DNA from: Escherichia coli
GTDB lineage: Bacteria; Pseudomonadota; Gammaproteobacteria; Enterobacterales; Enterobacteriaceae
DNA: 64,000 nucleotides
Assembly (NCBI RefSeq): GCF_001677475.2
Contig: NZ_CP015229.1
Strand: one strand, 5' to 3'
The notes beneath the pieces are model-generated. The model was not told the origin of the DNA, made no database searches, and was given only the letters and a program-made list of their open reading frames with translations. Below are positions 1-57,625 of this stretch, one piece after another (position 1 is the stretch's first letter; the number at the start of each line of letters is the position of its first letter). The position numbers and the translations under genes were made by a program.

Positions 1-537
1 GCATTAGACGGGCAACCGCAGAGCTGGCTTACCAGTTTCCGCTGGGAGAATGGCAACGGCATGTTGACGCAACTCAACCGCCAGTTCCCGACCATTAGCC
101 TGTTAGACATTGGCGCGATTTTAAAACAGGTCGGTCAGGTGCTGGAGCAGGTAAGTCGGGCGCTGGAAGTGATGGTGGTGCTGGTCACCGCCTGCGGTAT
201 GTTGCTGTTGCTGGCGCAGGTGCAGGTGGGAATGCGTCAGCGCCATCAGGAGCTGGTGGTGTGGCGCACTCTCGGTGCGGGCAAAAAACTGCTGCGCACC
301 ACGTTGTGGTGTGAGTTCGCCATGCTCGGGTTTGTTTCTGGCCTGGTGGCCGCAATTGGTGCGGAAACGGCGCTGGCAGTGTTGCAGGCGAAAGTGTTTG
401 ATTTCCCGTGGGAGCCAGACTGGCGATTGTGGATTGTTCTGCCGTGCAGCGGTGCGCTGCTGCTGTCGCTTTGCGGCGGATGGCTGGGCGCGCGACTGGT
501 TAAGGGTAAGGCGCTGTTCAGGCAGTTTGCGGGATGA
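1..537 (+). CDS. ybbP: ABC-transporter permease YbbP, C-terminal part (5' end lies upstream of the window)
   Basis: Open frame runs from nt 1 with no stop until 535-537; track ORF 61..537 is its tail; hydrophobic membrane-protein composition; position upstream of mnmH as in K-12. Confidence 0.8.
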   Translation, partial: ALDGQPQSWLTSFRWENGNGMLTQLNRQFPTISLLDIGAILKQVGQVLEQVSRALEVMVVLVTACGMLLLLAQVQVGMRQRHQELVVWRTLGAGKKLLRTTLWCEFAMLGFVSGLVAAIGAETALAVLQAKVFDFPWEPDWRLWIVLPCSGALLLSLCGGWLGARLVKGKALFRQFAG

Positions 538-553
538 TGACAGGCGTTAGATT

Positions 554-651
<98 letters not shown>

Positions 652-681
652 ATGAACAGTGTGCATTTTGGCAATAAATAT

Positions 682-708
682 GAAACCAACTGTCATGTCG
701 GTTTTTTT
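682..708. terminator. Bidirectional intrinsic terminator hairpin (A-tract / stem / T-tract)
   Basis: gaaaccaac-tgtcat-gtcggttttttt; stem flanked by an A-run upstream and T7 downstream; near-identical to the hairpin at 1161..1189. Confidence 0.6.
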
Positions 709-754
709 AAAGGCCGAAGGTGGTAAACCTTCGGCCTTAGCTACGTTTCCTCAG

Positions 755-838
755 TTATTCAATAAACTGACGGATCAGTTCCAGCAGCGCGATTAGCGCC
801 TTAAGAACGATGAGAACTTTATCGAGAAAAGTTTTCAT
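755..838 (-). CDS. Candidate type I toxin: 27-aa amphipathic peptide MKTFLDKVLIVLKALIALLELIRQFIE (DinQ/TisB-like)
   Basis: ATG at 838-836 (minus), TAA at 757-755; SD AAGGGAG 6 nt upstream; SD lies in perfect palindrome ctcccttaagggag (845..858); peptide matches my recollection of DinQ (shared ALIALLELIR core). Too short for the ORF track. Confidence 0.5.
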   Translation of the reverse strand: MKTFLDKVLIVLKALIALLELIRQFIE

Positions 839-844
839 CCGTTG

Positions 845-858
845 CTCCCTTAAGGGAG
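845..858 (-). promoter_or_regulatory. RBS-sequestering palindrome upstream of the candidate toxin ORF
   Basis: ctcccttaagggag is its own reverse complement; a 5-bp stem / 4-nt loop would occlude the GGGAG Shine-Dalgarno. Confidence 0.5.
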
Positions 859-1063
859 AAAGACAATCACAGCTTACCCTTACGTTGCCTGTAACTATGA
901 TTTTCTTCATGTGCTAGATGAGGACTGCCTCTCTCCAAATTAGAGCACCAGAATCAGCACCACCTGTATCCTGACCAGGACTTAAAAGTACTTTTCCGCA
1001 CTGCGGTAATCCCTTGAGGCAGTATCACTACTAGCGTCGGGATTGTATCGCCAGCATAGCTGT

Positions 1064-1092
1064 TTGAATATGTAGGCATCCTGACTTATAAT
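1064..1092 (+). promoter_or_regulatory. Sigma70-like promoter for the candidate antitoxin sRNA
   Basis: TTGAAT (1064-1069), 17-bp spacer, perfect TATAAT (1087-1092). Confidence 0.5.
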
Positions 1093-1098
1093 TCACTT

Positions 1099-1189
1099 GC
1101 TAGATGAGGACTGTTTCATTTCTGCCCGGAACCACCAAGTCTTGGGCGGAAAAAAAATAAAAAAACCGACTGTCATGTCGGTTTTTTTA
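1099..1189 (+). ncRNA. Candidate antitoxin sRNA (~90 nt), Agr/IstR-like, divergent from the toxin gene
   Basis: Predicted start ~7 nt after the -10; 5' end contains tgctagatgaggactg (1098..1113), identical to 912..927 and so complementary to the minus-strand toxin 5' UTR; ends at the terminator hairpin 1161..1189. Confidence 0.45.
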
Positions 1190-1251
1190 TATCTGTATTC
1201 TGGTGCAACCATTCTGTTCTCACGACAATCGCCGTTTCAGAATACCGCCCA

Positions 1252-2361
<1,110 letters not shown>

Positions 2362-2414
2362 TCAAATCAGCTTGCGCGCTATTTTACGCGCCAACGCGCA
2401 AGGAAACTTGATTT

Positions 2415-3341
2415 TTAACTGCGTGGGTTGCCGAAAATTTCTAAAAATCCGCTGATTTCCGGCCTGCGCTGGGTAAACAAGGTCACAATATCTTCTACCG
2501 CTTTGCCGCTGCCAAATTTGCGCCATGCCAGACTCAATGGCGAAGGAGGGCGCATCGTTGGGATTACCCGGCTGACCAGTTGTTGATTATCGATCATTGA
2601 CTGGCAAAGTGATTTTGGCAAAAAACCAATGCCAACGCCCGCCAGATGGGCGGCGATTTTCGTTTCCATATCGGGAACAATAATCTCTTTTTGCCCCGGC
2701 AATCGCCAGGCAACGCGTTTGGTTAGTGTGCGGGCGCTGTCTTCAATATTGACCGCCGGAAAGCGCCGCAACTGCGCTTCTGTTAGCGGCTCTTCAATGT
2801 TCGCCAGCGGATGATCCGCCGCCATGACAAAGCGCCATTGCACCGATCCTAAGGGATCAAGACTAAAGGTATTTGCCAGCGCCTCGGTTCCCGTGACGCC
2901 GATAGCCAGTGAAAAACCTTCGTACAATAGCGAGTCCCAGACGCCCATATAGATTTGTCGGGAGATGTGAAACTGGGTAAAGGGGTAACGTTCATTCAGC
3001 CACGCCAGCAGTTGGGCGACGGCCTGGGGGTTGTAGAGCAGGTTGTTGATGACAATATTCACCTGGCGTTCCACGCCATCATTCACCTGTTGCAGCTCGC
3101 TGGGCATACTTTCCAGCCAGCTCAGCCAGTCTCTGGCCTGAGAAAGTAGATGCTCGCCAGCCGCTGTCAACGTCACGCTGCGAGTCGTGCGGAAAAACAG
3201 CGCCACTCCGGTATTCTCTTCCAGAAGTTTAATGCGATAACTGATCGTCGCCGTGGTTTTACATAATCGTTCTGCCGCTTTTGAAAAACTTCCTGTTTCA
3301 GCAACCGCAATGAAAGTCCGCAAGGTTTCTGGATCGAACAT
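2415..3341 (-). CDS. allS: LysR-family activator of the allantoin regulon
   Basis: 308-aa ORF with N-terminal LysR HTH; divergent from allA. Confidence 0.92.
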
Positions 3342-3448
3342 CTTCAGGTATCCCCTTTTAAATCAGCAAGTTGCGTGATTTTCTTATCCTCTGATTTATC
3401 AGTATTTTTACATGATAACCCTGTTCAATTTGTGGACTAAATCTAGTT

Positions 3449-3465
3449 TTGGAAAAATATTCCAA
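3449..3465. promoter_or_regulatory. AllR operator-like inverted repeat in the allS-allA intergenic region
   Basis: ttggaaaaatattccaa; same inverted-repeat type recurs upstream of gcl at 4999..5015. Confidence 0.6.
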
Positions 3466-3570
3466 CTTTTGTGTTGATGTTGTTCTCTTAAGGTTTTAGA
3501 TTGCCTGTTATTGAAACCAAGCTGACCGGTCGGCGCTGGTTGAACGGAATTATGTTGCAAGGATAAAAAG

Positions 3571-4053
3571 ATGAAACTTCAGGTATTACCGTTAAGTCAG
3601 GAAGCCTTTAGTGCTTATGGCGATGTAATCGAAACGCAGCAACGGGATTTTTTCCATATTAACAATGGCCTGGTAGAGCGTTACCACGATTTGGCGCTGG
3701 TTGAGATTCTTGAGCAAGACCGTACGCTTATCAGCATTAACCGCGCGCAACCGGCGAATCTGCCGCTGACCATTCACGAACTCGAACGTCATCCGCTGGG
3801 CACTCAGGCCTTTATCCCGATGAAAGGTGAAGTGTTTGTGGTGGTCGTGGCGTTAGGTGACGACAAACCAGACCTGTCAACGCTGCGGGCGTTTATCACC
3901 AACGGTGAACAGGGGGTGAATTACCATCGTAACGTCTGGCATCACCCACTTTTCGCCTGGCAGCGCGTCACCGATTTTCTGACCATCGATCGCGGCGGCA
4001 GTGACAACTGTGATGTTGAAAGTATTCCTGAACAGGAACTCTGTTTTGCGTGA
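3571..4053 (+). CDS. allA: Ureidoglycolate lyase
   Basis: 160-aa ORF; conserved position between allS and allR. Confidence 0.92.
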
Positions 4054-4130
4054 CGCCTGCAACCGACTTGCATAAGATAAACTAATTGTTCATTGTTTAT
4101 GCTCACTTGTAGGTCGGAGTTAACGTAGGT

Positions 4131-4946
4131 ATGACGGAAGTTAGACGGCGCGGCAGGCCAGGACAGGCGGAGCCTGTGGCACAGAAGGGCGCACAGGCGT
4201 TAGAGCGGGGAATTGCGATTCTGCAATATCTGGAAAAAAGTGGGGGAAGTTCGTCGGTTAGCGATATTTCTCTCAATCTGGATTTGCCGCTCTCCACGAC
4301 CTTTCGCTTGCTGAAGGTTTTACAGGCAGCGGATTTTGTCTATCAGGACAGTCAGTTAGGTTGGTGGCATATAGGATTAGGTGTTTTTAACGTCGGTGCG
4401 GCGTACATCCATAACCGCGATGTCCTCTCCGTCGCCGGGCCGTTTATGCGCCGCCTGATGTTACTTTCCGGCGAAACGGTCAATGTCGCGATTCGTAACG
4501 GCAATGAAGCAGTATTAATTGGTCAGTTAGAGTGTAAATCGATGGTCAGGATGTGTGCGCCGCTGGGCAGTCGTCTGCCGCTGCATGCTTCCGGTGCGGG
4601 CAAGGCGCTGCTTTATCCGCTGGCGGAAGAGGAGTTGATGAGCATCATTCTGCAAACCGGTTTGCAGCAGTTTACGCCAACGACGCTTGTGGATATGCCC
4701 ACCTTGCTGAAGGACCTGGAACAAGCGCGTGAACTGGGCTATACCGTAGATAAAGAAGAGCATGTTGTAGGCCTGAATTGCATAGCTTCAGCAATTTACG
4801 ATGATGTAGGTAGTGTTGTTGCCGCTATCTCCATCTCCGGGCCTTCATCAAGACTGACAGAAGATCGTTTTGTCAGTCAGGGTGAGCTGGTCAGAGACAC
4901 CGCCCGCGATATCAGCACGGCGTTGGGACTGAAAGCACATCCATAG
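4131..4946 (+). CDS. allR: IclR-family repressor of the allantoin regulon
   Basis: 271-aa ORF with IclR-type HTH N-terminus and effector domain. Confidence 0.92.
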
Positions 4947-4998
4947 TGTCTGTCGCATCCTGCTCTGCGGAGCGGGTTTTTTTGACAAAATTTGAAAG

Positions 4999-5015
4999 TT
5001 GGAAAATTTTTCCAA
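4999..5015. promoter_or_regulatory. AllR operator-like inverted repeat upstream of gcl
   Basis: ttggaaaatttttccaa, 20 bp upstream of the gcl ATG. Confidence 0.6.
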
Positions 5016-5035
5016 TTAATAGAGGTAGGAATAAA

Positions 5036-6817
5036 ATGGCAAAAATGAGAGCCGTTGACGCGGCAATGTATGTGCTGGAGAAAGAAGGTATCACCACCGC
5101 CTTCGGCGTTCCGGGAGCTGCAATCAATCCGTTCTACTCAGCGATGCGTAAGCACGGCGGTATTCGTCACATTCTGGCGCGTCATGTGGAAGGTGCTTCG
5201 CACATGGCGGAAGGTTATACCCGCGCAACGGCAGGGAATATCGGCGTATGTCTGGGAACCTCGGGACCAGCAGGCACTGACATGATCACCGCGCTCTATT
5301 CCGCTTCTGCTGATTCCATTCCTATTCTGTGCATTACCGGCCAGGCTCCGCGCGCCCGTCTGCATAAAGAAGATTTCCAGGCCGTTGATATTGAAGCAAT
5401 TGCTAAACCGGTCAGCAAAATGGCGGTTACAGTACGTGAAGCGGCGCTGGTGCCTCGTGTGCTGCAACAGGCATTTCACCTGATGCGTTCTGGTCGTCCG
5501 GGTCCGGTACTGGTGGATTTACCGTTCGACGTACAGGTTGCGGAAATCGAGTTTGATCCTGACATGTACGAACCGCTGCCGGTCTACAAACCTGCTGCCA
5601 GCCGTATGCAGATCGAAAAAGCTGTAGAAATGTTAATCCAGGCCGAACGTCCGGTGATTGTTGCCGGGGGCGGGGTAATCAATGCTGACGCAGCTGCACT
5701 GTTACAACAGTTTGCTGAACTGACCAGCGTTCCGGTGATCCCAACGCTGATGGGCTGGGGCTGTATCCCGGACGATCATGAACTGATGGCCGGGATGGTG
5801 GGTCTGCAAACCGCGCATCGTTACGGTAACGCAACGTTGCTGGCGTCCGACATGGTGTTTGGTATCGGTAACCGTTTTGCGAACCGTCATACCGGTTCGG
5901 TAGAGAAATACACCGAAGGGCGCAAAATCGTTCATATCGATATTGAGCCGACGCAAATTGGCCGCGTGCTGTGTCCGGATCTCGGCATTGTTTCTGATGC
6001 TAAAGCGGCGCTGACGCTGCTGGTTGAAGTGGCGCAGGAGATGCAAAAAGCGGGTCGTCTGCCGTGTCGTAAAGAATGGGTCGCCGACTGCCAGCAGCGC
6101 AAACGCACTTTGCTGCGCAAAACCCACTTCGACAATGTGCCGGTGAAACCGCAGCGCGTGTATGAAGAGATGAACAAAGCCTTTGGTCGCGATGTTTGTT
6201 ATGTCACCACCATTGGTCTGTCACAAATCGCTGCGGCACAAATGCTGCATGTCTTTAAAGACCGCCACTGGATCAACTGTGGGCAGGCAGGCCCGCTGGG
6301 CTGGACCATTCCGGCGGCGCTGGGCGTGTGTGCCGCTGATCCAGAGCGCAATGTGGTGGCGATTTCCGGTGACTTCGACTTCCAGTTCCTGATTGAAGAA
6401 TTAGCTGTTGGCGCACAGTTCAACATTCCGTACATCCATGTACTGGTCAATAACGCCTATCTGGGTCTGATTCGCCAGTCGCAGCGCGCGTTTGATATGG
6501 ATTACTGCGTACAGCTCGCGTTCGAAAATATTAACTCCAGCGAAGTGAACGGTTACGGCGTCGACCACGTAAAAGTAGCGGAAGGTTTAGGTTGTAAAGC
6601 GATTCGCGTTTTCAAACCGGAAGATATAGCACCAGCCTTTGAACAGGCGAAAGCCTTAATGGCGCAATATCGGGTACCGGTAGTCGTGGAAGTTATTCTC
6701 GAGCGTGTGACCAATATTTCGATGGGCAGCGAACTGGATAATGTAATGGAATTTGAAGATATCGCCGATAACGCAGTGGATGCACCGACTGAAACCTGCT
6801 TCATGCACTATGAATAG
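5036..6817 (+). CDS. gcl: Glyoxylate carboligase (tartronate-semialdehyde synthase)
   Basis: ThDP-enzyme sequence; start placed at the internal ATG ([18 protein letters not shown]...) giving 593 aa, with an RBS-like aggtagg upstream; track ORF 4946..6817 extends further upstream in frame. Confidence 0.93.
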
Positions 6818-6829
6818 GGGAGATAAATA

Positions 6830-7606
6830 ATGTTACGTTTCTCTGCTAATTTATCAATGTTATTTGGTGAATATGATTTTCTCGCCCGTTTTGAGAAAGC
6901 TGCGCAGTGTGGTTTTCGCGGCGTTGAATTTATGTTTCCTTATGACTACGACATTGAAGAATTAAAACAGGTGCTGGCGAGTAATAAACTCGAGCATACG
7001 CTGCATAATTTACCTGCGGGTGACTGGGCGGCGGGCGAGCGGGGTATTGCCTGTATTCCTGGCCGTGAAGAAGAGTTTCGTGATGGCGTAGCAGCGGCGA
7101 TTCGTTATGCTCGTGCGCTGGGTAATAAAAAAATCAACTGTCTGGTCGGTAAAACGCCGGCGGGTTTCAGCAGTGAACTGATTCACGCAACGCTTGTGGA
7201 AAACCTGCGTTATGCCGCGAATATGTTGATGAAAGAAGATATTTTATTACTGATTGAACCTATCAACCATTTCGATATTCCTGGTTTCCATCTCACCGGA
7301 ACTCAGCAGGCGCTGAAACTGATTGATGATGTAGGCTGCTGCAATTTGAAAATTCAGTATGACATTTATCATATGCAGCGGATGGAAGGTGAATTAACCA
7401 ACACCATGATCCAATGGGTCGATAAAATTGGTCACCTGCAAATCGCCGATAATCCACATCGCGGCGAACCGGGAACCGGAGAAATTAATTACGATTATCT
7501 CTTTAAGGTAATTGAACATTCTGACTACAACGGTTGGGTTGGCTGTGAATATAAACCCAGAACCACCACGGAAGCCGGTTTAGGCTGGATGAAACCGTAC
7601 CGTTAA
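6830..7606 (+). CDS. hyi: Hydroxypyruvate isomerase
   Basis: 258-aa ORF, TIM-barrel sugar-isomerase-like; operon position after gcl. Confidence 0.92.
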   Translation: MLRFSANLSMLFGEYDFLARFEKAAQCGFRGVEFMFPYDYDIEELKQVLASNKLEHTLHNLPAGDWAAGERGIACIPGREEEFRDGVAAAIRYARALGNKKINCLVGKTPAGFSSELIHATLVENLRYAANMLMKEDILLLIEPINHFDIPGFHLTGTQQALKLIDDVGCCNLKIQYDIYHMQRMEGELTNTMIQWVDKIGHLQIADNPHRGEPGTGEINYDYLFKVIEHSDYNGWVGCEYKPRTTTEAGLGWMKPYR

Positions 7607-7705
7607 AACGTAACGCTGTTCAGACAATGCTTTTTTAGGCCGCTACGTCGGCAGGGGATCGTGTTGTCTGAATTCAGGAAAAGCGACATTTAAAAGAGGC
7701 TAAAT

Positions 7706-8584
7706 ATGAAACTGGGATTTATTGGCTTAGGCATTATGGGTACTCCGATGGCCATTAATCTGGCGCGCGCCGGTCATCAACTGCATGTCACAACTATTGG
7801 TTCGGTTGCTGATGAATTACTGTCACTCGGTGCCGTCAGTGTTGAAACTGCGCGCCAGGTAACAGAAGCGTCAGACATCATTTTTATTATGGTGCCGGAT
7901 ACGCCACAGGTTGAAGAAGTTCTGTTTGGTGAAAATGGTTGTACCAAAGCCTCGCTGAAGGGCAAAACCATTGTTGATATGAGCTCCATTTCCCCGATTG
8001 AAACTAAACGTTTCGCTCGTCAGGTGAATGAACTAGGTGGCGATTATCTCGATGCGCCAGTCTCCGGCGGTGAAATCGGCGCGCGTGAAGGGACGTTGTC
8101 GATTATGGTTGGCGGTGACGAAGCGGTATTTGAACGTGTTAAACCGCTGTTTGAATTGCTCGGTAAAAATATCACCCTCGTGGGCGGTAACGGCGACGGT
8201 CAAACCTGCAAAGTGGCAAATCAGATTATCGTGGCGCTCAATATTGAAGCGGTTTCTGAAGCATTGTTGTTTGCTTCAAAAGCCGGTGCGGACCCGGTAC
8301 GTGTGCGCCAGGCGCTGATGGGCGGCTTTGCTTCCTCACGTATTCTGGAAGTTCACGGTGAGCGCATGATTAAACGCACCTTTAATCCAGGTTTCAAAAT
8401 TGCGCTGCACCAGAAAGATCTCAACCTGGCACTGCAAAGTGCGAAAGCACTGGCGCTGAACCTGCCAAACACTGCGACCTGCCAGGAGTTATTTAATACC
8501 TGTGCGGCAAACGGTGGCAGCCAGTTGGATCACTCTGCGTTAGTGCAGGCGCTGGAATTAATGGCTAACCATAAACTGGCCTGA
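7706..8584 (+). CDS. glxR: Tartronate semialdehyde reductase
   Basis: 292-aa ORF; N-terminal Rossmann motif GFIGLGIMG; 3-hydroxyisobutyrate-dehydrogenase family. Confidence 0.93.
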   Translation: MKLGFIGLGIMGTPMAINLARAGHQLHVTTIGSVADELLSLGAVSVETARQVTEASDIIFIMVPDTPQVEEVLFGENGCTKASLKGKTIVDMSSISPIETKRFARQVNELGGDYLDAPVSGGEIGAREGTLSIMVGGDEAVFERVKPLFELLGKNITLVGGNGDGQTCKVANQIIVALNIEAVSEALLFASKAGADPVRVRQALMGGFASSRILEVHGERMIKRTFNPGFKIALHQKDLNLALQSAKALALNLPNTATCQELFNTCAANGGSQLDHSALVQALELMANHKLA

Positions 8585-8752
8585 TACCCGCAATAAAAAT
8601 GGCCGATATCAGAAAATGAATCGGCCAGCAATATTAAAAAAGAAAGCAGCCAAAGATGTTGCTTCAGTATTAAAAATAATATTTTTATTTTATTTGTTCC
8701 TCATAGCTAGATTAAAACAGCGTTATTCGATACGTGAAATTAAGAGGGATTT

Positions 8753-10207
8753 ATGGAACATCAGAGAAAACTATTCCAGCAACGCGGCTATAGCGAAGAT
8801 CTACTGCCGAAAACGCAAAGTCAGCGGACCTGGAAAACATTTAACTATTTTACCTTATGGATGGGTTCGGTTCATAACGTTCCCAATTATGTGATGGTTG
8901 GCGGCTTTTTTATCCTCGGCTTGTCTACCTTTAGTATTATGCTGGCAATTATCCTCAGTGCCTTTTTCATTGCCGCGGTAATGGTATTAAACGGTGCTGC
9001 GGGCAGTAAATACGGCGTACCGTTTGCCATGATCCTGCGTGCTTCTTACGGCGTACGTGGCGCACTGTTTCCCGGATTATTAAGAGGCGGTATTGCTGCC
9101 ATTATGTGGTTTGGCCTGCAATGTTACGCGGGGTCACTGGCCTGCTTGATTCTGATTGGCAAAATCTGGCCGGGATTTTTGACTCTCGGTGGTGATTTCA
9201 CTCTGTTAGGCCTTTCTCTACCGGGCTTAATTACTTTCTTACTCTTCTGGCTGGTCAACGTTGGTATTGGTTTTGGCGGTGGCAAAGTTTTAAATAAATT
9301 CACTGCCATTCTTAACCCGTGCATCTATATCGTTTTCGGCGGTATGGCGATTTGGGCGATTTCGCTGGTCGGGCTCGGTCCAATCTTTGACTACATTCCG
9401 AGCGGTATTCAGAAAGCAGAAAACAGTGGCTTCCTGTTCCTGGTGGTGATTAACGCGGTAGTTGCGGTCTGGGCGGCACCGGCGGTGAGCGCATCCGACT
9501 TTACGCAAAACGCCCACTCGTTTCGTGAGCAAGCGCTGGGGCAAACGCTGGGTTTAGTTGTGGCCTATATTCTGTTTGCGGTCGCCGGGGTATGTATTAT
9601 TGCCGGAGCCAGTATTCACTACGGCGCTGACACCTGGAACGTGCTGGATATTGTTCAGCGTTGGGACAGCCTGTTTGCCTCGTTCTTTGCGGTACTGGTT
9701 ATTCTGATGACGACTATCTCCACTAACGCCACCGGTAATATTATTCCGGCCGGTTATCAGATTGCCGCTATTGCACCGACGAAACTGACCTATAAAAACG
9801 GCGTACTGATTGCCAGTATTATCAGCCTGCTGATCTGCCCGTGGAAATTAATGGAAAATCAGGACAGTATTTATCTGTTCCTCGATATTATCGGCGGAAT
9901 GCTGGGTCCGGTAATTGGTGTAATGATGGCTCATTATTTTGTGGTGATGCGTGGGCAAATTAACCTTGATGAACTATACACCGCACCTGGCGATTATAAA
10001 TATTACGATAACGGTTTTAACCTCACCGCGTTTTCAGTAACTCTGGTGGCCGTTATTTTATCTCTTGGCGGTAAGTTTATTCACTTTATGGAACCGTTAT
10101 CGCGTGTTTCATGGTTTGTCGGCGTCATCGTCGCCTTTGCGGCCTACGCCTTATTAAAGAAACGTACAACAGCAGAAAAAACAGGAGAGCAAAAAACCAT
10201 AGGTTAA
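8753..10207 (+). CDS. ybbW: Allantoin permease (NCS1 family)
   Basis: 484-aa polytopic membrane protein; position between glxR and allB. Confidence 0.9.
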   Translation: MEHQRKLFQQRGYSEDLLPKTQSQRTWKTFNYFTLWMGSVHNVPNYVMVGGFFILGLSTFSIMLAIILSAFFIAAVMVLNGAAGSKYGVPFAMILRASYGVRGALFPGLLRGGIAAIMWFGLQCYAGSLACLILIGKIWPGFLTLGGDFTLLGLSLPGLITFLLFWLVNVGIGFGGGKVLNKFTAILNPCIYIVFGGMAIWAISLVGLGPIFDYIPSGIQKAENSGFLFLVVINAVVAVWAAPAVSASDFTQNAHSFREQALGQTLGLVVAYILFAVAGVCIIAGASIHYGADTWNVLDIVQRWDSLFASFFAVLVILMTTISTNATGNIIPAGYQIAAIAPTKLTYKNGVLIASIISLLICPWKLMENQDSIYLFLDIIGGMLGPVIGVMMAHYFVVMRGQINLDELYTAPGDYKYYDNGFNLTAFSVTLVAVILSLGGKFIHFMEPLSRVSWFVGVIVAFAAYALLKKRTTAEKTGEQKTIG

Positions 10208-10266
10208 TTAATCCCGATATTGAACATTGAGTTAAAAACCAATCTGTATTTTACAAGGAGTTTGTT

Positions 10267-11628
10267 ATGTCTTTTGATTTAATCATTAAAAACGGCACCG
10301 TTATTTTAGAAAACGAAGCTCGCGTTGTAGATATCGCCGTTAAAGGCGGAAAAATTGCTGCTATCGGTCAGGATCTGGGTGATGCAAAAGAAGTTATGGA
10401 TGCGTCTGGTCTGGTGGTTTCGCCGGGCATGGTTGATGCGCACACCCATATTTCTGAACCGGGTCGTAGCCACTGGGAAGGTTATGAAACCGGTACTCGC
10501 GCAGCAGCAAAAGGTGGTATCACCACCATGATCGAAATGCCGCTCAACCAACTGCCTGCAACGGTTGACCGCGCTTCAATTGAACTGAAGTTCGATGCCG
10601 CTAAAGGCAAGCTGACTATCGATGCGGCACAACTCGGTGGCCTGGTGTCTTACAACATTGATCGTCTGCATGAGTTGGATGAAGTGGGCGTTGTCGGCTT
10701 CAAATGCTTCGTTGCGACCTGTGGCGATCGCGGTATCGACAACGACTTCCGTGATGTAAATGACTGGCAGTTCTTCAAAGGCGCGCAGAAGCTGGGCGAA
10801 CTGGGGCAGCCGGTGCTGGTGCACTGCGAAAACGCACTGATCTGTGACGCACTGGGCGAAGAAGCGAAACGTGAAGGTCGCGTAACTGCCCATGACTATG
10901 TGGCTTCGCGTCCGGTATTTACCGAAGTGGAAGCGATTCGCCGCGTACTGTACCTGGCGAAAGTTGCCGGTTGCCGTCTGCACATTTGCCATATCAGCAG
11001 CCCGGAAGGTGTTGAAGAAGTGACTCGTGCACGTCAGGAAGGTCAGGACGTTACCTGTGAATCCTGCCCGCATTACTTTGTACTGGATACCGATCAGTTC
11101 GAAGAAATCGGTACTCTGGCGAAGTGTTCACCGCCGATCCGCGATCTGGAAAACCAGAAAGGCATGTGGGAAAAACTGTTTAACGGTGAAATCGACTGCC
11201 TGGTTTCCGACCACTCACCATGCCCTCCGGAAATGAAAGCCGGCAACATCATGGAAGCATGGGGCGGTATTGCCGGTCTGCAAAACTGTATGGACGTGAT
11301 GTTCGATGAAGCGGTACAGAAACGCGGAATGTCTCTGCCAATGTTCGGCAAATTAATGGCGACTAACGCAGCAGATATTTTCGGTCTGCAGCAAAAAGGC
11401 CGTATCGCCCCAGGAAAAGATGCCGACTTCGTCTTCATTCAGCCGAATAGCAGCTATGTTCTTACCAATGACGATCTGGAATATCGCCACAAAGTCAGCC
11501 CGTATGTTGGCCGTACCATTGGCGCGCGTATCACGAAAACCATCTTACGTGGTGATGTGATTTACGACATTGAACAGGGCTTCCCTGTTGCGCCGAAAGG
11601 TCAATTTATCCTTAAACATCAGCAGTAA
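10267..11628 (+). CDS. allB: Allantoinase
   Basis: 453-aa ORF; amidohydrolase metal-binding motifs (DAHTH, HxH). Confidence 0.93.
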
Positions 11629-11684
11629 TCTGGCCCCTGCAATGCCCGTCCTTGCGGCGGGCATTCTCCGGTTAAGGTGTGTTT

Positions 11685-12986
11685 ATGTTCAATTTTGCAG
11701 TCAGCCGCGAAAGCCTGTTATCAGGATTTCAGTGGTTTTTCTTTATTTTTTGCAACACGGTTGTGGTTCCTCCTACGCTACTTTCTGCTTTTCAGTTGCC
11801 GCAAAGTAGCCTGCTTACGCTCACGCAATATGCTTTTCTTGCTACCGCACTGGCCTGCTTCGCTCAGGTGTTTTGCGGTCATCGTCGCGCTATTATGGAA
11901 GGGCCAGGTGGCCTGTGGTGGGGAACCATCCTTACTATCACCCTTGGCGAAGCATCGCGCGGGACACCGATCAACGATATCGCTACCAGTCTGGCGGTGG
12001 GGATTGCACTCTCCGGCGTGCTGACGATGTTGATTGGTTTTAGCGGATTAGGCCATCGCCTGGCACGGTTATTTACGCCGTCGGTGATGGTCCTGTTTAT
12101 GTTGATGCTGGGCGCGCAGCTGACCACTATCTTTTTCAAAGGTATGCTCGGGCTGCCGTTTGGCATAGCCGACCCAAATTTTAAAATTCAGTTACCGCCG
12201 TTCGCGCTCTCGGTGGCGGTGATGTGCCTGGTACTGGGGATGATTATCTTCCTGCCGCAACGTTTTGCCCGTTATGGCCTGCTGGTCGGCACCATAACCG
12301 GCTGGTTGTTGTGGTACTTTTGCTTTCCTGCTTCGCACTCGCTCTCCGGTGAGTTGCACTGGCAGTGGTTCCCGCTCGGCAGTGGCGGTGCGTTGTCGCC
12401 GGGAATTATTCTGACGGCGGTGATTACAGGTCTGGTAAATATCAGCAATACCTACGGTGCGATTCGGGGCACGGATGTTTTTTATCCGCAGCAGGGCGCG
12501 GGGAATACGCGTTATCGTCGTAGCTTTGTGGCGACCGGATTTATGACGCTGATAACCGTACCGCTGGCGGTAATTCCATTTTCACCGTTTGTTTCATCCA
12601 TTGGTTTATTAACCCAGACTGGCGATTACACGCGACGTTCGTTTATTTATGGCAGCGTTATTTGCCTGCTGGTTGCGCTGGTTCCGGCACTCACGCGACT
12701 ATTTTGCAGTATCCCTTTACCAGTGAGTAGCGCGGTCATGCTGGTTTCTTATCTGCCTTTACTCTTTTCCGCGCTGGTGTTTAGCCAGCAAATAACCTTT
12801 ACCGCTCGCAATATTTATCGACTCGCATTGCCGTTATTTGTCGGCATATTTTTAATGGCATTACCGCCTGTGTATCTGCAAGACCTTCCATTAACGCTTC
12901 GTCCTCTGCTCAGTAACGGCTTACTGGTCGGAATTTTACTGGCTGTTCTTATGGATAATCTTATTCCGTGGGAACGCATCGAATAA
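11685..12986 (+). CDS. ybbY: Putative purine/uracil permease family transporter
   Basis: Membrane protein; start set at the ATG (MFNFAVS...) giving 433 aa; track ORF begins 6 nt earlier at GTG. Confidence 0.88.
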   Translation: MFNFAVSRESLLSGFQWFFFIFCNTVVVPPTLLSAFQLPQSSLLTLTQYAFLATALACFAQVFCGHRRAIMEGPGGLWWGTILTITLGEASRGTPINDIATSLAVGIALSGVLTMLIGFSGLGHRLARLFTPSVMVLFMLMLGAQLTTIFFKGMLGLPFGIADPNFKIQLPPFALSVAVMCLVLGMIIFLPQRFARYGLLVGTITGWLLWYFCFPASHSLSGELHWQWFPLGSGGALSPGIILTAVITGLVNISNTYGAIRGTDVFYPQQGAGNTRYRRSFVATGFMTLITVPLAVIPFSPFVSSIGLLTQTGDYTRRSFIYGSVICLLVALVPALTRLFCSIPLPVSSAVMLVSYLPLLFSALVFSQQITFTARNIYRLALPLFVGIFLMALPPVYLQDLPLTLRPLLSNGLLVGILLAVLMDNLIPWERIE

Positions 12987-13007
12987 TTTGTTGAAAAAGG
13001 ATTGATA

Positions 13008-14153
13008 ATGAAGATTGTCATTGCGCCAGACTCTTTTAAAGAGAGCTTAAGTGCAGAAAAATGTTGTCAGGCAATTAAAGCCGGGTTTTCGACCCTCTTT
13101 CCCGATGCGCACTATATCTGTTTGCCGATAGCGGATGGCGGCGAAGGGACGGTGGATGCGATGGTCGCCGCGACGGGCGGCAACATCGTGAAGCTTGAAG
13201 TCTGCGGGCCGATGGGCGAAAAAGTGAATGCTTTTTATGGCCTTACCGGCGACGGGAAAACAGCGGTGATTGAGATGGCGGCAGCAAGTGGCCTGATGCT
13301 GGTCGCGCCTGAAAAGCGTAATCCGTTGCTGGCCTCCAGTTTTGGTACGGGGGAGTTAATTCGTCATGCGCTGGATAACGGCATTCGCCATATTATTCTC
13401 GGCATTGGCGGTAGTGCGACGGTCGACGGCGGTATGGGCATGGCGCAGGCGCTTGGTGTGCGTTTCCTTGATGCCGACGGTCAGGTGCTGGTGGCTAACG
13501 GCGGCAATTTAGCGCGCGTGGCAAGCATTGAGATGGATGAATGCGATCCGCGTCTGGCGAACTGCCATATTGAAGTAGCATGTGACGTTGATAACCCGCT
13601 GGTAGGGGCACGCGGCGCGGCGGCGGTGTTTGGCCCGCAAAAAGGGGCAACGCCGGAGATGGTCGAAGAACTGGAACAGGGGCTGCAAAATTACGCCCGT
13701 GTTTTACAACAGCAAACTGAAATGAATGTCTGCCAGATGGCGGGCGGCGGCGCGGCGGGCGGTATGGGTATTGCGGCGGCGGTATTCCTCAATGCGGATA
13801 TTAAACCGGGCATTGAGATTGTGTTGAATGCGGTCAATCTTGCGCAGGCGGTGCAGGGCGCAGCACTGGTGATCACCGGGGAAGGGCGCATCGACTCGCA
13901 AACGGCAGGCGGTAAAGCTCCGCTGGGCGTTGCGTCGGTGGCGAAGCAGTTTAATGTACCGGTGATTGGGATTGCTGGCGTATTGGGTGATGGCGTGGAA
14001 GTGGTGCACCAGTACGGCATTGATGCGGTATTCAGCATTTTGCCACGTCTGGCACCTTTAACCGAAGTGCTCGCCAGCGGTGAAACCAATCTCTTCAACA
14101 GTGCGCGAAATATTGCCTGCGCCATTAAAATAGGTCAGGGAATTAAAAACTGA
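13008..14153 (+). CDS. glxK: Glycerate kinase II
   Basis: 381 aa from the ATG ([14 protein letters not shown]...); glycerate-kinase family sequence. Confidence 0.92.
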
Positions 14154-14194
14154 CTCTTACCTTTAAAGTGGATGCGATTTATTTCGTATAAGAG

Positions 14195-14320
14195 CGCAGT
14201 GCTCATGCCGGATGCGGCATGAGTACTATATCCTTCCTGAAAATCGCGCAAATTCTATATATTGTAGAGATCATGTAGGCCTGATAAGCGAAGCGCATCA
14301 GGCAATGTTACAAAAAAAGC
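14195..14320. repeat. REP elements and hairpin in the glxK-allE intergenic region
   Basis: gccggatgcggcatgag... and tgtaggcctgataagcgaagcgcatcaggca, followed by hairpin gccacggtataaaccgtggc. Confidence 0.7.
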
Positions 14321-14380
14321 CACGGTATAAACCGTGGCAAAATCCAACATAGCTAAAAATAATCAGGCGAGTGGTATGAC

Positions 14381-15166
14381 TTAAATCTCTACGTCGCGGT
14401 TGCAATCTTTCGAGTAAATATAGCTGAACGCTTCACCACGCCCTACGCCATAACCAGCCTGTAAAGAATAAGCGCCCATAAAGATGTAATCGCCTTTTTT
14501 CACCGGAATCCAGTTATTGTCAAGGTTATAAACCCCCTGACCGGAAAGAATATAGGCACCGTGTTCCTGAACATGTGTTTCGATATAACCGTGGCTGGCA
14601 CCTGGCGCAAAAGAGAGGATATGCATGTTCATATCAAAACCTAACTCTTTGGGCAGAAAATCCAGCAGGATCACATCATCCATACCTTCATAATGAATGC
14701 GTTCCAGTTCGCTGGCATTGCCAGAAACCAGCCACGGCGCATGACCTTCTACCGGAACATAGCGACGCTTATATAAAAAGATTTGGCTGTCTTCGGCCTG
14801 GGCGTTAACAAAAGTCATTAAGGAGCCTGGCGGGCAATAAAGATAGCCACCTTCACTTAAGGTAAATGTTTTCCCTTCGGCTTTGGCAGTGATATTTCCA
14901 GAGATCACATACAGGAACGTTTCAATGCCTTCGCCACCGAAGCCCTGTTGGTTGCCGCCGTTTTGATGCAGTGTGACCAGATAATCAACAAAAGAGGCAC
15001 CCAGCTTTGGCGTGGAGAGGATTGTCGCGTCACAATTTTCAAAGCCCGGAATAATATTTTTTACCAGACCGTCTGGTGTTAACAGTGCGAAATTACCGTG
15101 TTTAACAATCGCACGGTTAGCCAGTAAATCATCGCGGTAACCGGTGACGTTATTTAAATATCCCAT
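14381..15166 (-). CDS. allE: Cupin-family (S)-ureidoglycine aminohydrolase
   Basis: 261-aa ORF; position upstream of allC/allD (ylbA). Confidence 0.88.
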   Translation of the reverse strand: MGYLNNVTGYRDDLLANRAIVKHGNFALLTPDGLVKNIIPGFENCDATILSTPKLGASFVDYLVTLHQNGGNQQGFGGEGIETFLYVISGNITAKAEGKTFTLSEGGYLYCPPGSLMTFVNAQAEDSQIFLYKRRYVPVEGHAPWLVSGNASELERIHYEGMDDVILLDFLPKELGFDMNMHILSFAPGASHGYIETHVQEHGAYILSGQGVYNLDNNWIPVKKGDYIFMGAYSLQAGYGVGRGEAFSYIYSKDCNRDVEI

Positions 15167-15176
15167 TTATGACTCC

Positions 15177-16412
15177 TTATTTCTGCCAGGCAAGTTGATA
15201 AAGCATGAGTGCCAACGTTTTGACCCCTTCGGCAAGGTCGGTAATATTGGTGCGTTCCGCCGGGTTATGGCTGATCCCGTTGATGCTGGGGATAAAAATC
15301 ATACAGGTTGGTACGCGAGGCGCGAAAATTTGCGCGTCGTGCCCGGCACCACTGTGCATCACCCGGTAATTCAGTTTTTCGCTTTCACACAATTCTGTCA
15401 GGGTGGCGACCAGGTCCTTATTCATCGGCACGGGTTCTTCGTCCATCCATAAATCAATATCAATACCAATGTCCATTTCATCGCAAATCGCCCGCATGTC
15501 GTTTTCTAACTGCTGGGTGAAATCGCGCAGCACGGCAGCGTCGGTATGACGACAATCAATGGTGAACGTGGTTTTACCTGGTACCACATTCACCGTATTC
15601 GGACGCGGCTCCACCTTGCCAAAGGTAAGCACCAGCGGGTCGCCCATCTTTTTCGCTTTTTCGATCGACTGATGGCAAATGCGACTGAAAGCGTAAACCG
15701 TATCACGACGATAACCCATCGGCGTGGTGCCTGCATGGTTTGATTCGCCGTTCAGCGTCACCGTATAGCGACGTTGCCCGACAATTGCATTCACCACGCC
15801 AATTGACTGCCCGTTACTTTCCAGCACACAGCCCTGTTCGATATGCAGTTCGACAAAGGCTTTAATATCCTGACGCGGAGTTAGCGGGGCGTCCGGCAGA
15901 GTAAATCCGCAAGCCTTCATCGCATCGACAAACCTATTTCCTTTGGCATCACAGATATTCCGTACGTCGTCAGGATTCGCCAGCCCAAAGATATTTTTAC
16001 TGCCCCAGAAGACATACGGGAAGCGGCTGCCTTCTTCTTCTGCCATCGCCACCACTTCGACCGTACGTAGCGGCGCGCCGTATTGCGTTTTCAGCCAGTC
16101 AATTGCCAGCCAGGCCGCCAGCGCGCCGAATTGCCCGTCGAGGTTACCGCCGTTAACCACGGTATCGATATGCGAACCGCTCAGAACCACTTCCTGTGGA
16201 TATTCGGTGCCATTCAGGCGACCGTATAAATTTCCCACTTCATCGAAATGTGTTTCCAGCCCGCTTGCTGCCATTCTTTTTTTAAATTGCTGTTGGGTTT
16301 CCAGCCATTCCGGCGAATAAAGTAAACGGGTCATCCCACCCGTAGGGTCAGCGCCAAAAGAGGAAAGCCAGGGCAGCGTTTCTTCTATGGCTTGACGGAA
16401 ATGTGTAATCAT
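15177..16412 (-). CDS. allC: Allantoate amidohydrolase
   Basis: M20-peptidase-like; start set at the internal ATG (MITHFRQAIEE...) giving 411 aa. Confidence 0.92.
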   Translation of the reverse strand: MITHFRQAIEETLPWLSSFGADPTGGMTRLLYSPEWLETQQQFKKRMAASGLETHFDEVGNLYGRLNGTEYPQEVVLSGSHIDTVVNGGNLDGQFGALAAWLAIDWLKTQYGAPLRTVEVVAMAEEEGSRFPYVFWGSKNIFGLANPDDVRNICDAKGNRFVDAMKACGFTLPDAPLTPRQDIKAFVELHIEQGCVLESNGQSIGVVNAIVGQRRYTVTLNGESNHAGTTPMGYRRDTVYAFSRICHQSIEKAKKMGDPLVLTFGKVEPRPNTVNVVPGKTTFTIDCRHTDAAVLRDFTQQLENDMRAICDEMDIGIDIDLWMDEEPVPMNKDLVATLTELCESEKLNYRVMHSGAGHDAQIFAPRVPTCMIFIPSINGISHNPAERTNITDLAEGVKTLALMLYQLAWQK

Positions 16413-16433
16413 AAGAAAGTCCTGTCTCAATAA

Positions 16434-17483
16434 TTATTGCGCAAAGGGATTTTTCGTTTCGTATGACGTGTTATAAAGCGCGTCGGAAATTAAATACTGG
16501 TAAATATCATCAACAATTTCGATGCCTTCGACGGCGGCTTTGCGTTGTTTAATATCCTGATCCTGTCCGGGATAATAAACCTGATTAAAACCGGGCGCGG
16601 GGGTAATGGCATTTAATTCGCGCATGGTCTGGCTAAGATGTTGACGGAATAATTCGCTGGAGGAGAAAAAGTTCGGATTAATAACTATATGTAATTGCCC
16701 CAAATTACGCCCGGCGTGTAAATCGTCATACATCGAACTAACCTGTCGCCCGAACGGTAAGCCGAGTAAGACGCCTGAGAGGACGTCAATCATCATCATC
16801 AGGCCATACCCTTTCGGCCCAGCGGCGGGGAGCAGAGCATGTACCGCGAACGGATCGGTTGTTGGTGCACCGTTTTTATCGACCGCCCAGGTATCCGGGA
16901 TAGACATATTACGCGAGCGGGCGTCGAGCACTTTTCCCCATGCCTGTACGGTAGTCGCCATATCAAAGGTAAGGATCTCGTTGCCTTCTCCCGGCGCGGC
17001 AAAGGCCAGTGGGTTAGTACCGTAGTAAATTTCCGCGCCGCCAAACGGCACCACCATTGGATCGGACTGGCACATCGAAATACCAATTAATCCGGCGCGG
17101 GCTGCCTGCTGCACAAAATAAGAGATTGCGCCGCTGTGACCCATCCGGCTGATACCGACCACCGCAACGCCATTTTGCTGGGCGGTTTTGATGGCATGTT
17201 CCATACCCATTTTCGCCGCGACCTGTCCGGCGGCATTGTCGGCATGTAAAATTGCCGAGCACGGCCCGGTTTCCTCAAGACGAAACTCCGGTTCGCGGTT
17301 GGTGCCGCCTTTTGAGATGCGTTCCGCGTAGTATTCCACGCGCACCGCGCCATGAGAGTGGATCCCTCTGGCATCGGCGTAAACCAATACTTCAGCCACG
17401 GTTGCAGCGTGCTCACGTTTTAACCCAGCCTGGTAGAGTTTATTCTCGATTAGCTGGTGGAGTGTTTCCCGACTGATTTTCAT
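16434..17483 (-). CDS. allD: Ureidoglycolate dehydrogenase
   Basis: 349-aa ORF, Ldh2-type oxidoreductase family. Confidence 0.92.
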   Translation of the reverse strand: MKISRETLHQLIENKLYQAGLKREHAATVAEVLVYADARGIHSHGAVRVEYYAERISKGGTNREPEFRLEETGPCSAILHADNAAGQVAAKMGMEHAIKTAQQNGVAVVGISRMGHSGAISYFVQQAARAGLIGISMCQSDPMVVPFGGAEIYYGTNPLAFAAPGEGNEILTFDMATTVQAWGKVLDARSRNMSIPDTWAVDKNGAPTTDPFAVHALLPAAGPKGYGLMMMIDVLSGVLLGLPFGRQVSSMYDDLHAGRNLGQLHIVINPNFFSSSELFRQHLSQTMRELNAITPAPGFNQVYYPGQDQDIKQRKAAVEGIEIVDDIYQYLISDALYNTSYETKNPFAQ

Positions 17484-17799
17484 CTGTCTTCCTTTTTAAC
17501 GACGGTGTGAAGCATGACTGCAATTAACATACAGGGAAAATATCTGGATTATGTGATCCAGACAGGCAAAAAAATATAGTTAGAATTTATTTGATAATCC
17601 GCTCGCTTTTAACCTGGTTTTTAAAACAACCACGCTTATTAAAAAATAACGCGTAATAGCCTGGCGGTTATTTGAATTCTTTTGTTAATAATCCCTGTGT
17701 GATATTCATCACCTTATTTACTCGTTGTCATCGATACCGTAATCGCCACATTAACACTGCTCGTGCAATTGCCATGGGTGCAATTTTTAAGGAGTTGTT

Positions 17800-35799: not shown

Positions 35800-35876
35800 C
35801 GCGCCCTTAGCTCAGTTGGATAGAGCAACGACCTTCTAAGTCGTGGGCCGCAGGTTCGAATCCTGCAGGGCGCGCC
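35800..35876 (+). tRNA. argU: tRNA-Arg (anticodon UCU)
   Basis: gcgcccttagctcagttggatagagcaacgaccttctaagtcgtgggccgcaggttcgaatcctgcagggcgcgcca; cloverleaf with TCT anticodon; promoter TTGACT...TATAAT upstream. Confidence 0.97.
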
Positions 35877-35922
35877 ATTTCTTCTTCATTTATGCCCGTC
35901 TTATCCGTTTCCGCTTTGCCCT

Positions 35923-46781: not shown

Positions 46782-47114
46782 ATGAAAAAAGCACTGCAAG
46801 TCGCAATGTTCAGTCTGTTTACCGTTATTGGCTTTAATGCCCAGGCTAACGAACATCATCATGAAACCATGAGCGAAGCACAACCACAGGTTATTAGCGC
46901 CACTGGCGTGGTAAAAGGTATTGATCTGGAAAGCAAAAAAATCACCATCCATCACGATCCGATTGCTGCCGTGAACTGGCCGGAGATGACCATGCGCTTT
47001 ACCATCACCCCGCAGACGAAGATGGGCGAAATAAAAACCGGCGACAAAGTGGCGTTTAATTTTGTCCAGCAGGGCAACCTTTCTTTATTACAGGATATTA
47101 AAGTCAGCCAGTAA
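46782..47114 (+). CDS. cusF: Periplasmic copper chaperone
   Basis: 110-aa ORF with signal peptide and His/Met-rich region. Confidence 0.95.
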   Translation: MKKALQVAMFSLFTVIGFNAQANEHHHETMSEAQPQVISATGVVKGIDLESKKITIHHDPIAAVNWPEMTMRFTITPQTKMGEIKTGDKVAFNFVQQGNLSLLQDIKVSQ

Positions 47115-47129
47115 CCCAGGTTTAATGAG

Positions 47130-57030: not shown

Positions 57031-57472
57031 TTATGTTGGCGTTTTCTATTCAGTATAGAAGTGGGAGCGACTGGGCGAGATGCGGAAGTTCTGGAATGTT
57101 TCTTTTTTTGGTGATGGTGAACTGATTGTGACTGAAGAAGTTTGGCTACTTTTGCAATGTGACAAGTTATGGCAGAGCTGGCTGGTGGCGAAGAATTTTG
57201 ACGATTGAGGCATGCAGAAAAAAACGGGTTCAGCTTCAGTTGATCAAATGAGGAGTGAGAAGTCTGAAACAGGACTAACTGTATAAATAAACAGCTATTT
57301 TGCTGAGGAAGGGTAAGATAACGGCGGGTGCCTGAAGCTTTCCGGTTTCAGGTTTACTCTGAGGTCTGGAAAGATGAAGCCCCAGGAGATATTTCTATCA
57401 ACCCTGGGGCTGCCACTCCAAACCCGAACAATTTGGATGGTAGTCCCTTCTTCGCATGGAGGCAATATAAAC

Positions 57473-57625
57473 ATGCTGACGAAATATGCCCTTGTGGCAG
57501 TCATAGTGCTGTGTTTGACGGTACTGGGATTTACGCTTCTGGTCGGAGACTCGCTGTGTGAGTTTACGGTGAAGGAACGTAATATTGAGTTTAAGGCTGT
57601 TCTCGCTTACGAACCGAAGAAGTAG
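57473..57625 (+). CDS. hokE: Hok-family host-killing toxin, copy 1 (50 aa)
   Basis: [53 protein letters not shown] ggagg; in this copy an upstream ORF is fused in frame (track ORF 57374..57625). Confidence 0.9.

Follow-up and report, generated by a model that had tools for sequence, protein, structure and literature searches.

Why does a stretch of Escherichia coli DNA carry the same 16-nucleotide (nt) sequence, TGCTAGATGAGGACTG, at two neighboring positions, 912-927 and 1098-1113? The stretch, hereafter the window, is the whole 64-kb segment (64,000 nt, contig NZ_CP015229.1 of assembly GCF_001677475.2) that was analyzed. An initial annotation, made from the letters of the DNA, had proposed that the second copy is the 5′ end of a small RNA (sRNA), and that the first lies in the untranslated region at the 5′ end (5′ UTR) of a toxin mRNA read from the minus strand, with which the sRNA could pair in trans. 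We conclude, with a probability of about 0.8, that the two 16-mers serve as matched recognition sites in a type I toxin-antitoxin module of the DinQ/AgrB family (dinQ-like, or 'dql'-type), located on the chromosome between ybbP and mnmH. What was obtained directly is the repeat, the assignment of both genes to the family, the location of the target at the homologous place, the co-variation across the family and the predicted structures; from the family we infer transcription of both RNAs, the processing site, toxicity, repression and cleavage by RNase III.

The recurrence of the 16-mer is unlikely to be due to chance. Both copies were found where they had been reported, on the plus strand, and they are the only two in the window; even when two mismatches are allowed no further site appears, and two matches arose in none of 100 shuffles. 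When the region 540-1260 was shuffled 1000 times with its dinucleotides preserved, the longest exact direct repeat had a mean of 8.7 nt and a maximum of 13, so that a repeat of 16 nt was never reached. Extending the repeat into the 5′ flank (906-927 against 1092-1113) gives 20 identical positions out of 22, close to the 20 of 23 claimed initially. On the other side, the DNA 3′ of the 16-mer differs between the copies (cctctctcc at 928-936, tttcatttc at 1114-1122), and four of the five differences are changes from C to T, which give G·U pairs in the RNA.

The two copies belong to two genes, whose elements are the following:

755..838, minus strand: coding sequence of the toxin, 27 amino acids (aa), MKTFLDKVLIVLKALIALLELIRQFIE, matched by the NCBIfam DinQ model.
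1099/1100..1190, plus strand: AgrB-family antitoxin sRNA of about 91 nt, matched by Rfam RF02891 and aligning with K-12 agrA and agrB.
912..927, minus strand: repeat copy 1, read in the toxin mRNA as CAGUCCUCAUCUAGCA (predicted nt 109-124), forming the core of the 5′ UTR segment targeted by the sRNA.
1098..1113, plus strand: repeat copy 2, at the sRNA 5′ end, with 14-15 of its 16 nt transcribed from the predicted start at 1099/1100.
913..936, minus strand: full predicted sRNA target (mRNA nt 100-123), overlapping the 'sequence 2' switch element GGAGAGAGGCAGU.

The family assignment of both genes relies on curated models. The toxin peptide matches the NCBIfam model NF041472 ('damage-inducible type I toxin DinQ') with 40.9 bits over residues 5-26, well above the cutoff of 30, and 15 of the 18 core residues are identical to those of K-12 DinQ in a by-eye alignment. 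The same peptide reaches only 24.5 bits with the DqlB model NF041473 (cutoff 35), whose members are 31 aa long (MINLLIIVLRAV...), and is therefore not dqlB. At the nucleotide level, the whole toxin transcription unit, from promoter to terminator, aligns with K-12 dinQ at 74% identity. As for the sRNA, it matches the Rfam AgrB model (RF02891) over its full length (model positions 1-84) at 50.3 bits (gathering score 40), and this is the single AgrB match at the locus; hence AgrB, which the initial annotation had named as one of several analogues, is in fact the family of the sRNA itself. The OrzO-P model gives 24.1 and 21.5 bits (gathering score 60), with the terminator as the only region aligned. 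The predicted fold of the sRNA (z = -5.3) has an internal hairpin between a 5′ tail of about 22 nt and a Rho-independent terminator.

Since both genes are recognized by standard models and the toxin carries a name in RefSeq, the system is already known. The open reading frame (ORF) is labelled 'dinQ' in RefSeq, usually as a 51-aa form starting at 910, and NCBI gives the name DinQ to the exact 27-aa and 51-aa sequences, each of them present on 1000 contigs or more, whose named sources include E. coli and Shigella. No sRNA was annotated in the RefSeq records inspected. We found no experimental work on this paralogue, and its exact peptide occurs in no searchable paper, with the proviso that the published list of dql genes was not checked for the locus. 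Thus, the locus can be regarded as a catalogued paralogue of a well-characterized family, which by inference would work as the family does.

The family is best understood in K-12, where the tandem sRNAs AgrA and AgrB each have a 5′ end that is antisense to 31 nt of dinQ, with 25/31 and 30/31 matches, respectively, and where AgrB alone, not AgrA, counteracts DinQ toxicity (Weel-Sneve 2013, PMC3567139). The primary dinQ mRNA is translationally inert and becomes active upon removal of 44 nt, through re-pairing of four leader elements; AgrB binds dinQ at G88-A119, a segment containing element 2, after which the Shine-Dalgarno hairpin closes again and RNase III cuts the duplex (Kristiansen 2016, PMC5066626). 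The same study defined dinQ-like (dql) genes, 14 in number, on chromosomes and plasmids, and noted that some strains possess dql in addition to dinQ. sRNAs have been predicted for dql loci in T1TAdb (PMC8594479), and the dqlB/agrB pair of plasmid pOXA-48 has been validated with compensatory mutations (PMC12365149).

The window locus resembles K-12 dinQ/agrAB in the homology of the whole toxin mRNA and of the sRNA, in the divergent and non-overlapping arrangement of the genes, in the size of the mRNA (about 330 nt), in the 27-aa hydrophobic peptide with its DKxxIVLxALIALLELIR core, in the pairing of the sRNA 5′ end about 73 nt upstream of the start codon and in the predicted four-element switch. 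It differs in its chromosomal site (ybbP-mnmH, instead of gor-arsR), in having one sRNA rather than the tandem agrA and agrB, and in its peptide, which has 3 aa more at its N-terminus and 3 aa fewer at its C-terminus and starts with ATG instead of GTG. The complementarity is also shorter, with a perfect stretch of 16 nt, or about 24 bp if G·U pairs are counted, whereas dinQ and agrB match at 30/31 positions (about 34 bp). Moreover, the best 20-mer fit to the LexA operator at the locus is 11/20 and lacks the CTG/CAG motifs, which are present in the 15/20 operator of K-12 dinQ; no CTG-N10-CAG was found anywhere in window positions 1-18072. The 'damage-inducible' name given by RefSeq is thus unsupported for this copy. 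Like the locus, dqlA and dqlB of Enterobacteriaceae chromosomes and plasmids are SOS-independent DinQ paralogues with their own matched sRNA and co-occur with dinQ in some strains. The plasmid dql loci examined share its layout and target position, and dql genes are likewise often annotated with an over-long N-terminus, although the plasmid dqlB peptides (31 aa) and duplexes (about 35 nt) are longer than those of the window. Finally, tisB/istR-1, zorO/orzO and shoB/ohsC share with the locus a divergent trans-acting sRNA, a long structured 5′ UTR, a target far upstream of the ribosome-binding site and activation by 5′ processing (PMC5066626), but have no sequence homology to it, and TisB employs a ribosome standby site rather than the element swap of dinQ (PMC5066626).

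The position of the target is a constant feature of the family. Repeat copy 1 ends 73 nt upstream of the toxin ATG (838..836), in agreement with the distance of about 75 nt proposed at first, and in all 23 loci examined the 3′ end of the target lies 70-76 nt before the start codon, K-12 having the same 73 nt. Together, this homologous position and the Rfam AgrB and NCBIfam DinQ matches support the central proposal, that is, the pairing of the 5′ end of a trans-acting sRNA with the 5′ UTR of a divergent toxin gene. The details of the sRNA end require some correction. Judging from homology with the annotated 5′ end of K-12 agrB (which corresponds to C1100 and goes back to the primer extension of Weel-Sneve 2013) and from where the TATAAT box lies, the sRNA would start at G1099 or C1100 rather than at T1098. 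Copy 2 is therefore located at the sRNA 5′ end as claimed, but 14-15 of its 16 nt, not all of them, would be transcribed. It also follows that the likeness of the 5′ flank at 1092-1097, which had been thought to add to the pairing, resides in untranscribed promoter DNA and makes no contribution to it. In fact, it is beyond the opposite end of the 16-mer that the helix continues. The predicted duplex consists of 19 contiguous bp (15 Watson-Crick pairs from G1099, followed by U·G, U·G, U-A and C-G), a bulged or mismatched A and 4-5 more bp, for a total of about 24 bp, and its 3′-ward extension takes in GGAGAGAGG, which corresponds to element 2 of dinQ. The span of 16-20 nt suggested initially is thus exceeded by virtue of G·U pairs on the 3′ side, without the 5′ flank.

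This pairing is specific by prediction. The first 30 nt of the sRNA bind the toxin mRNA with -41.9 kcal/mol, compared with -21.3 ± 2.5 kcal/mol for shuffled tails, the best of which reached -30.7. In a matrix of 8 toxin leaders (window, K-12 and six plasmid loci) and 10 sRNAs, the cognate sRNA was the best partner of every toxin; for the window toxin the cognate value was -47.3 kcal/mol and the next best, with agrA, -38.3 kcal/mol. Co-folding further indicates that the sRNA would bind the processed (5′-truncated) mRNA better than the full-length one (-21.0 vs -12.0 kcal/mol), as is the case for dinQ/agrB. All these values come from 5′-tail duplexes and co-fold ensembles; RNAduplex applied to the whole sRNA and mRNA was discarded since its implausibly long duplexes (-79 kcal/mol) arise because intramolecular structure is ignored and because the sRNA body is antisense-homologous to the leader.

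Target and sRNA tail were then aligned in a set of 20 loci, consisting of the eight loci of the matrix and 12 from a species-level genome scan. The resulting 33-bp intermolecular helix has 94.7% of its cells paired, against 34-42% when one partner is slid along the other. Changes on both sides are seen in 19 of the 33 helix pairs, and none of 500 shuffles reached the observed values. One of these compensatory changes is specific to the present locus, where sRNA position 2 has gone from A-U to G-C. It is part of a three-way change in this lineage: GUUAG to GCUAG in the sRNA, CUAAC to CUAGC in the target, and GUUAG to GCUAG at the 5′ end of the mRNA. That the start of the mRNA itself has changed in the same way agrees with the published view of the sRNA as a substitute for the 5′ 'lock' of the mRNA.

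The leader of the toxin mRNA contains the counterparts of the elements through which this lock acts in dinQ:

1016..1035, minus strand: predicted 5′ end of the toxin mRNA, GCUAGUAGUGAUACUGCCUC, the 'sequence 1' lock, which pairs with the target of the sRNA and resembles the sRNA 5′ end.
845..858, minus strand: palindrome CUCCCUUAAGGGAG, the hairpin 'sequences 3:4', which sequesters the Shine-Dalgarno GGGAG (849..845, minus strand, 6 nt before ATG 838).
855..862, minus strand: 'sequence 3', CUUUCUCC, whose alternative partner in the processed mRNA is GGAGAGAG (929-936), freeing the Shine-Dalgarno.

Folding with ViennaRNA suggests that in the full-length mRNA the 5′ end (GCUAG...ACUGCCUC) pairs with the target (GAGGCAGU...CUAGC), while the CUCCCUUAAGGGAG hairpin closes over the Shine-Dalgarno. 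In the 5′-truncated mRNA, GGAGAGAGGCAGUC is predicted to pair with GAUUGUCUUUCUCC, and the accessibility of the Shine-Dalgarno rises accordingly. Its mean unpaired probability takes the following values:

Full-length mRNA: 0.01 in the window, 0.04 in the K-12 control.
5′-truncated mRNA: 0.14 in the window, 0.21 in the K-12 control.
5′-truncated mRNA with the target blocked: 0.01 in the window, 0.02 in the K-12 control.

By prediction, therefore, the leader has four elements with mutually exclusive 1:2, 2:3 and 3:4 pairings gating the Shine-Dalgarno, as does that of the K-12 control. From the homologous dinQ/agrB system, which has been dissected by experiment, the following course of events can be envisaged. 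In the primary transcript, the 5′ end (1016-1035) would pair with the target and the 845-858 hairpin would bury the Shine-Dalgarno, leaving the mRNA inert. Processing at the 5′ end would free GGAGAGAG to pair with CUUUCUCC, so that the Shine-Dalgarno opens and translation becomes possible. The sRNA 5′ tail would then pair with 913-936 over about 24 bp, of which the 16-mer is the Watson-Crick core, standing in for the lost 5′ lock; the Shine-Dalgarno hairpin would form again and the sRNA-mRNA duplex would become a substrate for RNase III. If the dinQ model holds here, the pairing would thus act by capture of a switch element and RNase III cleavage, and not by simple occlusion, a point which goes beyond the initial annotation.

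Several observations weigh against this assignment and must be set beside the evidence above. Both transcription starts are placed by homology only. The 5′ tail of the sRNA is predicted to fold into a weak, G·U-rich hairpin (nt 5-22), in contrast to the unpaired tail of K-12 agrB. The 3′ half of the approximately 34-bp duplex usual in the family is gone at the window locus, whose cognate duplex is the weakest of the eight in the matrix (-47.3 vs -53.5 to -64.8 kcal/mol) and, at -42.9 kcal/mol, among the weakest of 22 pairs (one has -44.5, the other 20 from -53 to -67). Net co-fold binding to the processed mRNA (-21.0 kcal/mol) is far below that of dinQ/agrB (-37.6), is weaker than that of agrA/dinQ (-23.8), a pair reported as non-repressing, and is nearly equalled by heterologous agrA on the window toxin (-19.7). 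The copies are also direct repeats of each other, whose identity could be owed in part to gene conversion. Lastly, in up to about 200 carriers of the locus the toxin start and most of the target seem to be missing, which suggests that the toxin is dispensable. It is mainly the weakness of the cognate duplex that keeps our confidence in the function at the value given above.

The same data could be read as the signs of a decaying module, in which an 'AgrA-like' sRNA no longer represses effectively, the toxin owes its silence chiefly to the 5′ lock and Shine-Dalgarno hairpin of its own mRNA, or is being lost, and all that survives of an ancestral complementarity of about 34 nt is the 16-mer. The weak duplex with its missing distal half, the binding energies and the toxin start apparently deleted in roughly 15% of carriers all point in this direction. 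Against it, 19 contiguous bp are kept at the sRNA 5′ end, whereas the agrA/dinQ duplex is interrupted by mismatches, the substitutions next to the 16-mer are mostly of the kind that keeps pairing through G·U, sRNA position 2 has undergone a lineage-specific compensatory change, and promoter, terminator, Shine-Dalgarno and ORF are intact in 1124 genomes. We consider decay unlikely. Since the predicted net binding reaches about half the dinQ/agrB value and does not surpass that of agrA/dinQ, it may also be asked if control of the toxin is shared: the locus would then be an SOS-independent paralogue with its pairing trimmed to about 24 bp, regulated in part by the core-genome sRNA AgrA, the best heterologous partner. 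This we regard as a speculative and rather improbable variant. As a separate observation, E. albertii, E. whittamii and some E. coli have a dinQ target allele, GAGAUAGUCGUCAUCUAAC, to which the 5′ end of K-12 AgrA (GUUAGAUGAUGGCUAUCUC, agrA 1564-1645 of the K-12 locus record) is complementary except for one G·U; from these sequences, AgrA would seem to be the cognate antitoxin for another allele of dinQ.

It is very improbable that the real product is the 51-aa ORF of RefSeq (910..755) and that the sRNA blocks its start directly. RefSeq does annotate this form in E. coli HS and other carriers, and the 16-mer abuts its ATG (910..908), the duplex ending 1 nt away; yet this ATG has no Shine-Dalgarno upstream, while ATG 838 has GGGAG 6 nt before it. 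The DinQ hidden Markov model covers only residues 29-50 of the long form. Similarly, a 49-aa ORF is predicted in K-12, where the 27-aa peptide is nevertheless the translated toxin (PMC3567139), and spurious longer N-termini are common in Dql annotation (Kristiansen et al., PMC5066626). Probably, the RefSeq ORF is an over-extension of the 27-aa toxin by 24 codons, with an ATG directly beside the sRNA target. Scarcely credible, in our opinion, is a repeat devoid of function at the RNA level, be it the leftover of a local duplication or a substrate for recombination. Other pieces are duplicated at the locus, such as the terminator copies at 683-709 and 1163-1189, and deletions between short repeats do happen there; however, the same arrangement recurs with different matched sequences and strong compensatory variation in 20 independent loci, and pairing-dependent function has been demonstrated experimentally in two relatives. 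The reading of the 16-mers as matched recognition sequences of a DinQ/AgrB-type module is thus the one that we retain.

The remaining features of the module are the following:

1064..1092, plus strand: sRNA promoter TTGAAT-17 nt-TATAAT, with 10/12 consensus matches and TATAAT at 1087-1092.
1042..1047, minus strand: -10 box TACAAT of the toxin promoter, aligned with TATGAT of K-12 dinQ and without LexA box.
710..738, minus strand: hairpin that terminates the toxin mRNA, whose transcript is predicted to run from about 1035 to 708, or about 328 nt.
1157..1190, either strand: perfect 14-bp hairpin flanked by A- and T-runs, the sRNA terminator and, on the other strand, possibly that of mnmH.
683..709, plus strand: second copy of the sRNA terminator, 26/27 identical (96%) to 1163-1189, with an exact run of 21 nt.

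The numbering of the toxin mRNA was taken from K-12, where +1 is at 1483 of the dinQ locus record, six nt after the -10 TATGAT; alignment of the window -10 box (1047..1042) to that of K-12 dinQ puts the toxin +1 at G1035. The two predicted starts, about 1100 on the plus strand and about 1035 on the minus strand, are thus divergent, about 64 bp apart and free of overlap. A second promoter in front of repeat copy 1, which would yield a cis-antisense RNA, was considered and rejected: TATGAT at 896-901 has no acceptable -35 element, was not flagged by the promoter scan and stands in a register unlike that of copy 2. With the 683-709 segment directly beyond the toxin terminator, the cassette has a direct repeat on either side, 480 bp apart. 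This segment could be what is left of another agr-type gene, could serve ybbP as a terminator or could be a trace of cassette insertion; as a second sRNA gene it was dismissed, its likeness to the sRNA not being convincing beyond about 30 nt. The surroundings are those typical of E. coli, with the end of ybbP at about 536, REP (repetitive extragenic palindromic) elements next to it, and mnmH on the minus strand (2346..1252). The REP-type palindromes downstream of ybbP (546-657) give weak Rfam matches to naRNA4 and ES036, below the gathering scores.

The locus was found in 1326 of 5426 complete E. coli genomes (24%), always on the chromosome and with at least 95% identity in all but one; every copy inspected occupies the ybbP-mnmH site. 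E. coli HS and ATCC 8739 are among the carrier strains. The canonical dinQ/agrAB is present in 5422 of the 5426, hence essentially all carriers possess both systems. K-12 has no match to the locus. In O157:H7 Sakai, an rhsD island (41628-47726 of its locus record) is located at the ybbP-mnmH site instead of the cassette, and the two look like alternative occupants of one chromosomal site, corresponding to window 536-1252. About 200 of the 1326 carriers cover less than 80% of the query; the five of these that were listed display a single pattern, with 78% covered in two pieces. In the two low-coverage genomes that were aligned, this is due to a 108-bp deletion (816-923) between GATGAG(A/G)AC microhomologies (809-817 and 917-925), which removes toxin codons 1-8, the Shine-Dalgarno and 12 of the 16 target bases and leaves the sRNA gene intact as an orphan antitoxin. 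RefSeq still calls a 'dinQ' coding sequence in some deletion genomes.

Outside Escherichia and Shigella no orthologue was detected in one scan of genome contigs, which returned 19 loci, all of them dinQ, dqlB or other dql types. The nearest peptide is MRVFIEKAIIVLKAIIGFLELIRYFLE, from an Enterobacteriaceae metagenome-assembled genome (MAG). In Cedecea davisae and Serratia marcescens, DinQ-like loci with a conserved leader have no complementary sRNA within 900 nt upstream (best about -33 kcal/mol); their antitoxin may be elsewhere or absent.

Elsewhere in the window, two tandem hok/sok units lie about 503 bp apart at 57279-58129, with sok at 57326-57481 and 57829-57985 and Hok-like ORFs whose ends are at 57625 and 58129. 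In front of both units stands the same LexA-type box, CTGTATAAATAAACAG (57279 and 57782), and the region looks like a duplicated hok locus bearing SOS boxes. A match to the sRNA STnc480 above the gathering score was found at 14308-14374, and a tRNA-Arg (TCT) gene at 35801-35877.

As regards the biology of E. coli, the practical value of these results is limited, given that the mechanism itself is established for the family. If AgrA shared control of the toxin, this sRNA, non-repressing on dinQ in K-12, would gain a target in the quarter of E. coli that carries the locus; likewise, in the approximately 15% of carriers apparently without a toxin start, the sRNA that is kept would be an orphan free for other targets. 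On the whole, about a quarter of complete E. coli genomes would possess a second, chromosomal DinQ-type toxin, and since its carriers also have the core dinQ/agrAB, they offer a natural test case for the insulation of two paralogous RNA antitoxins.

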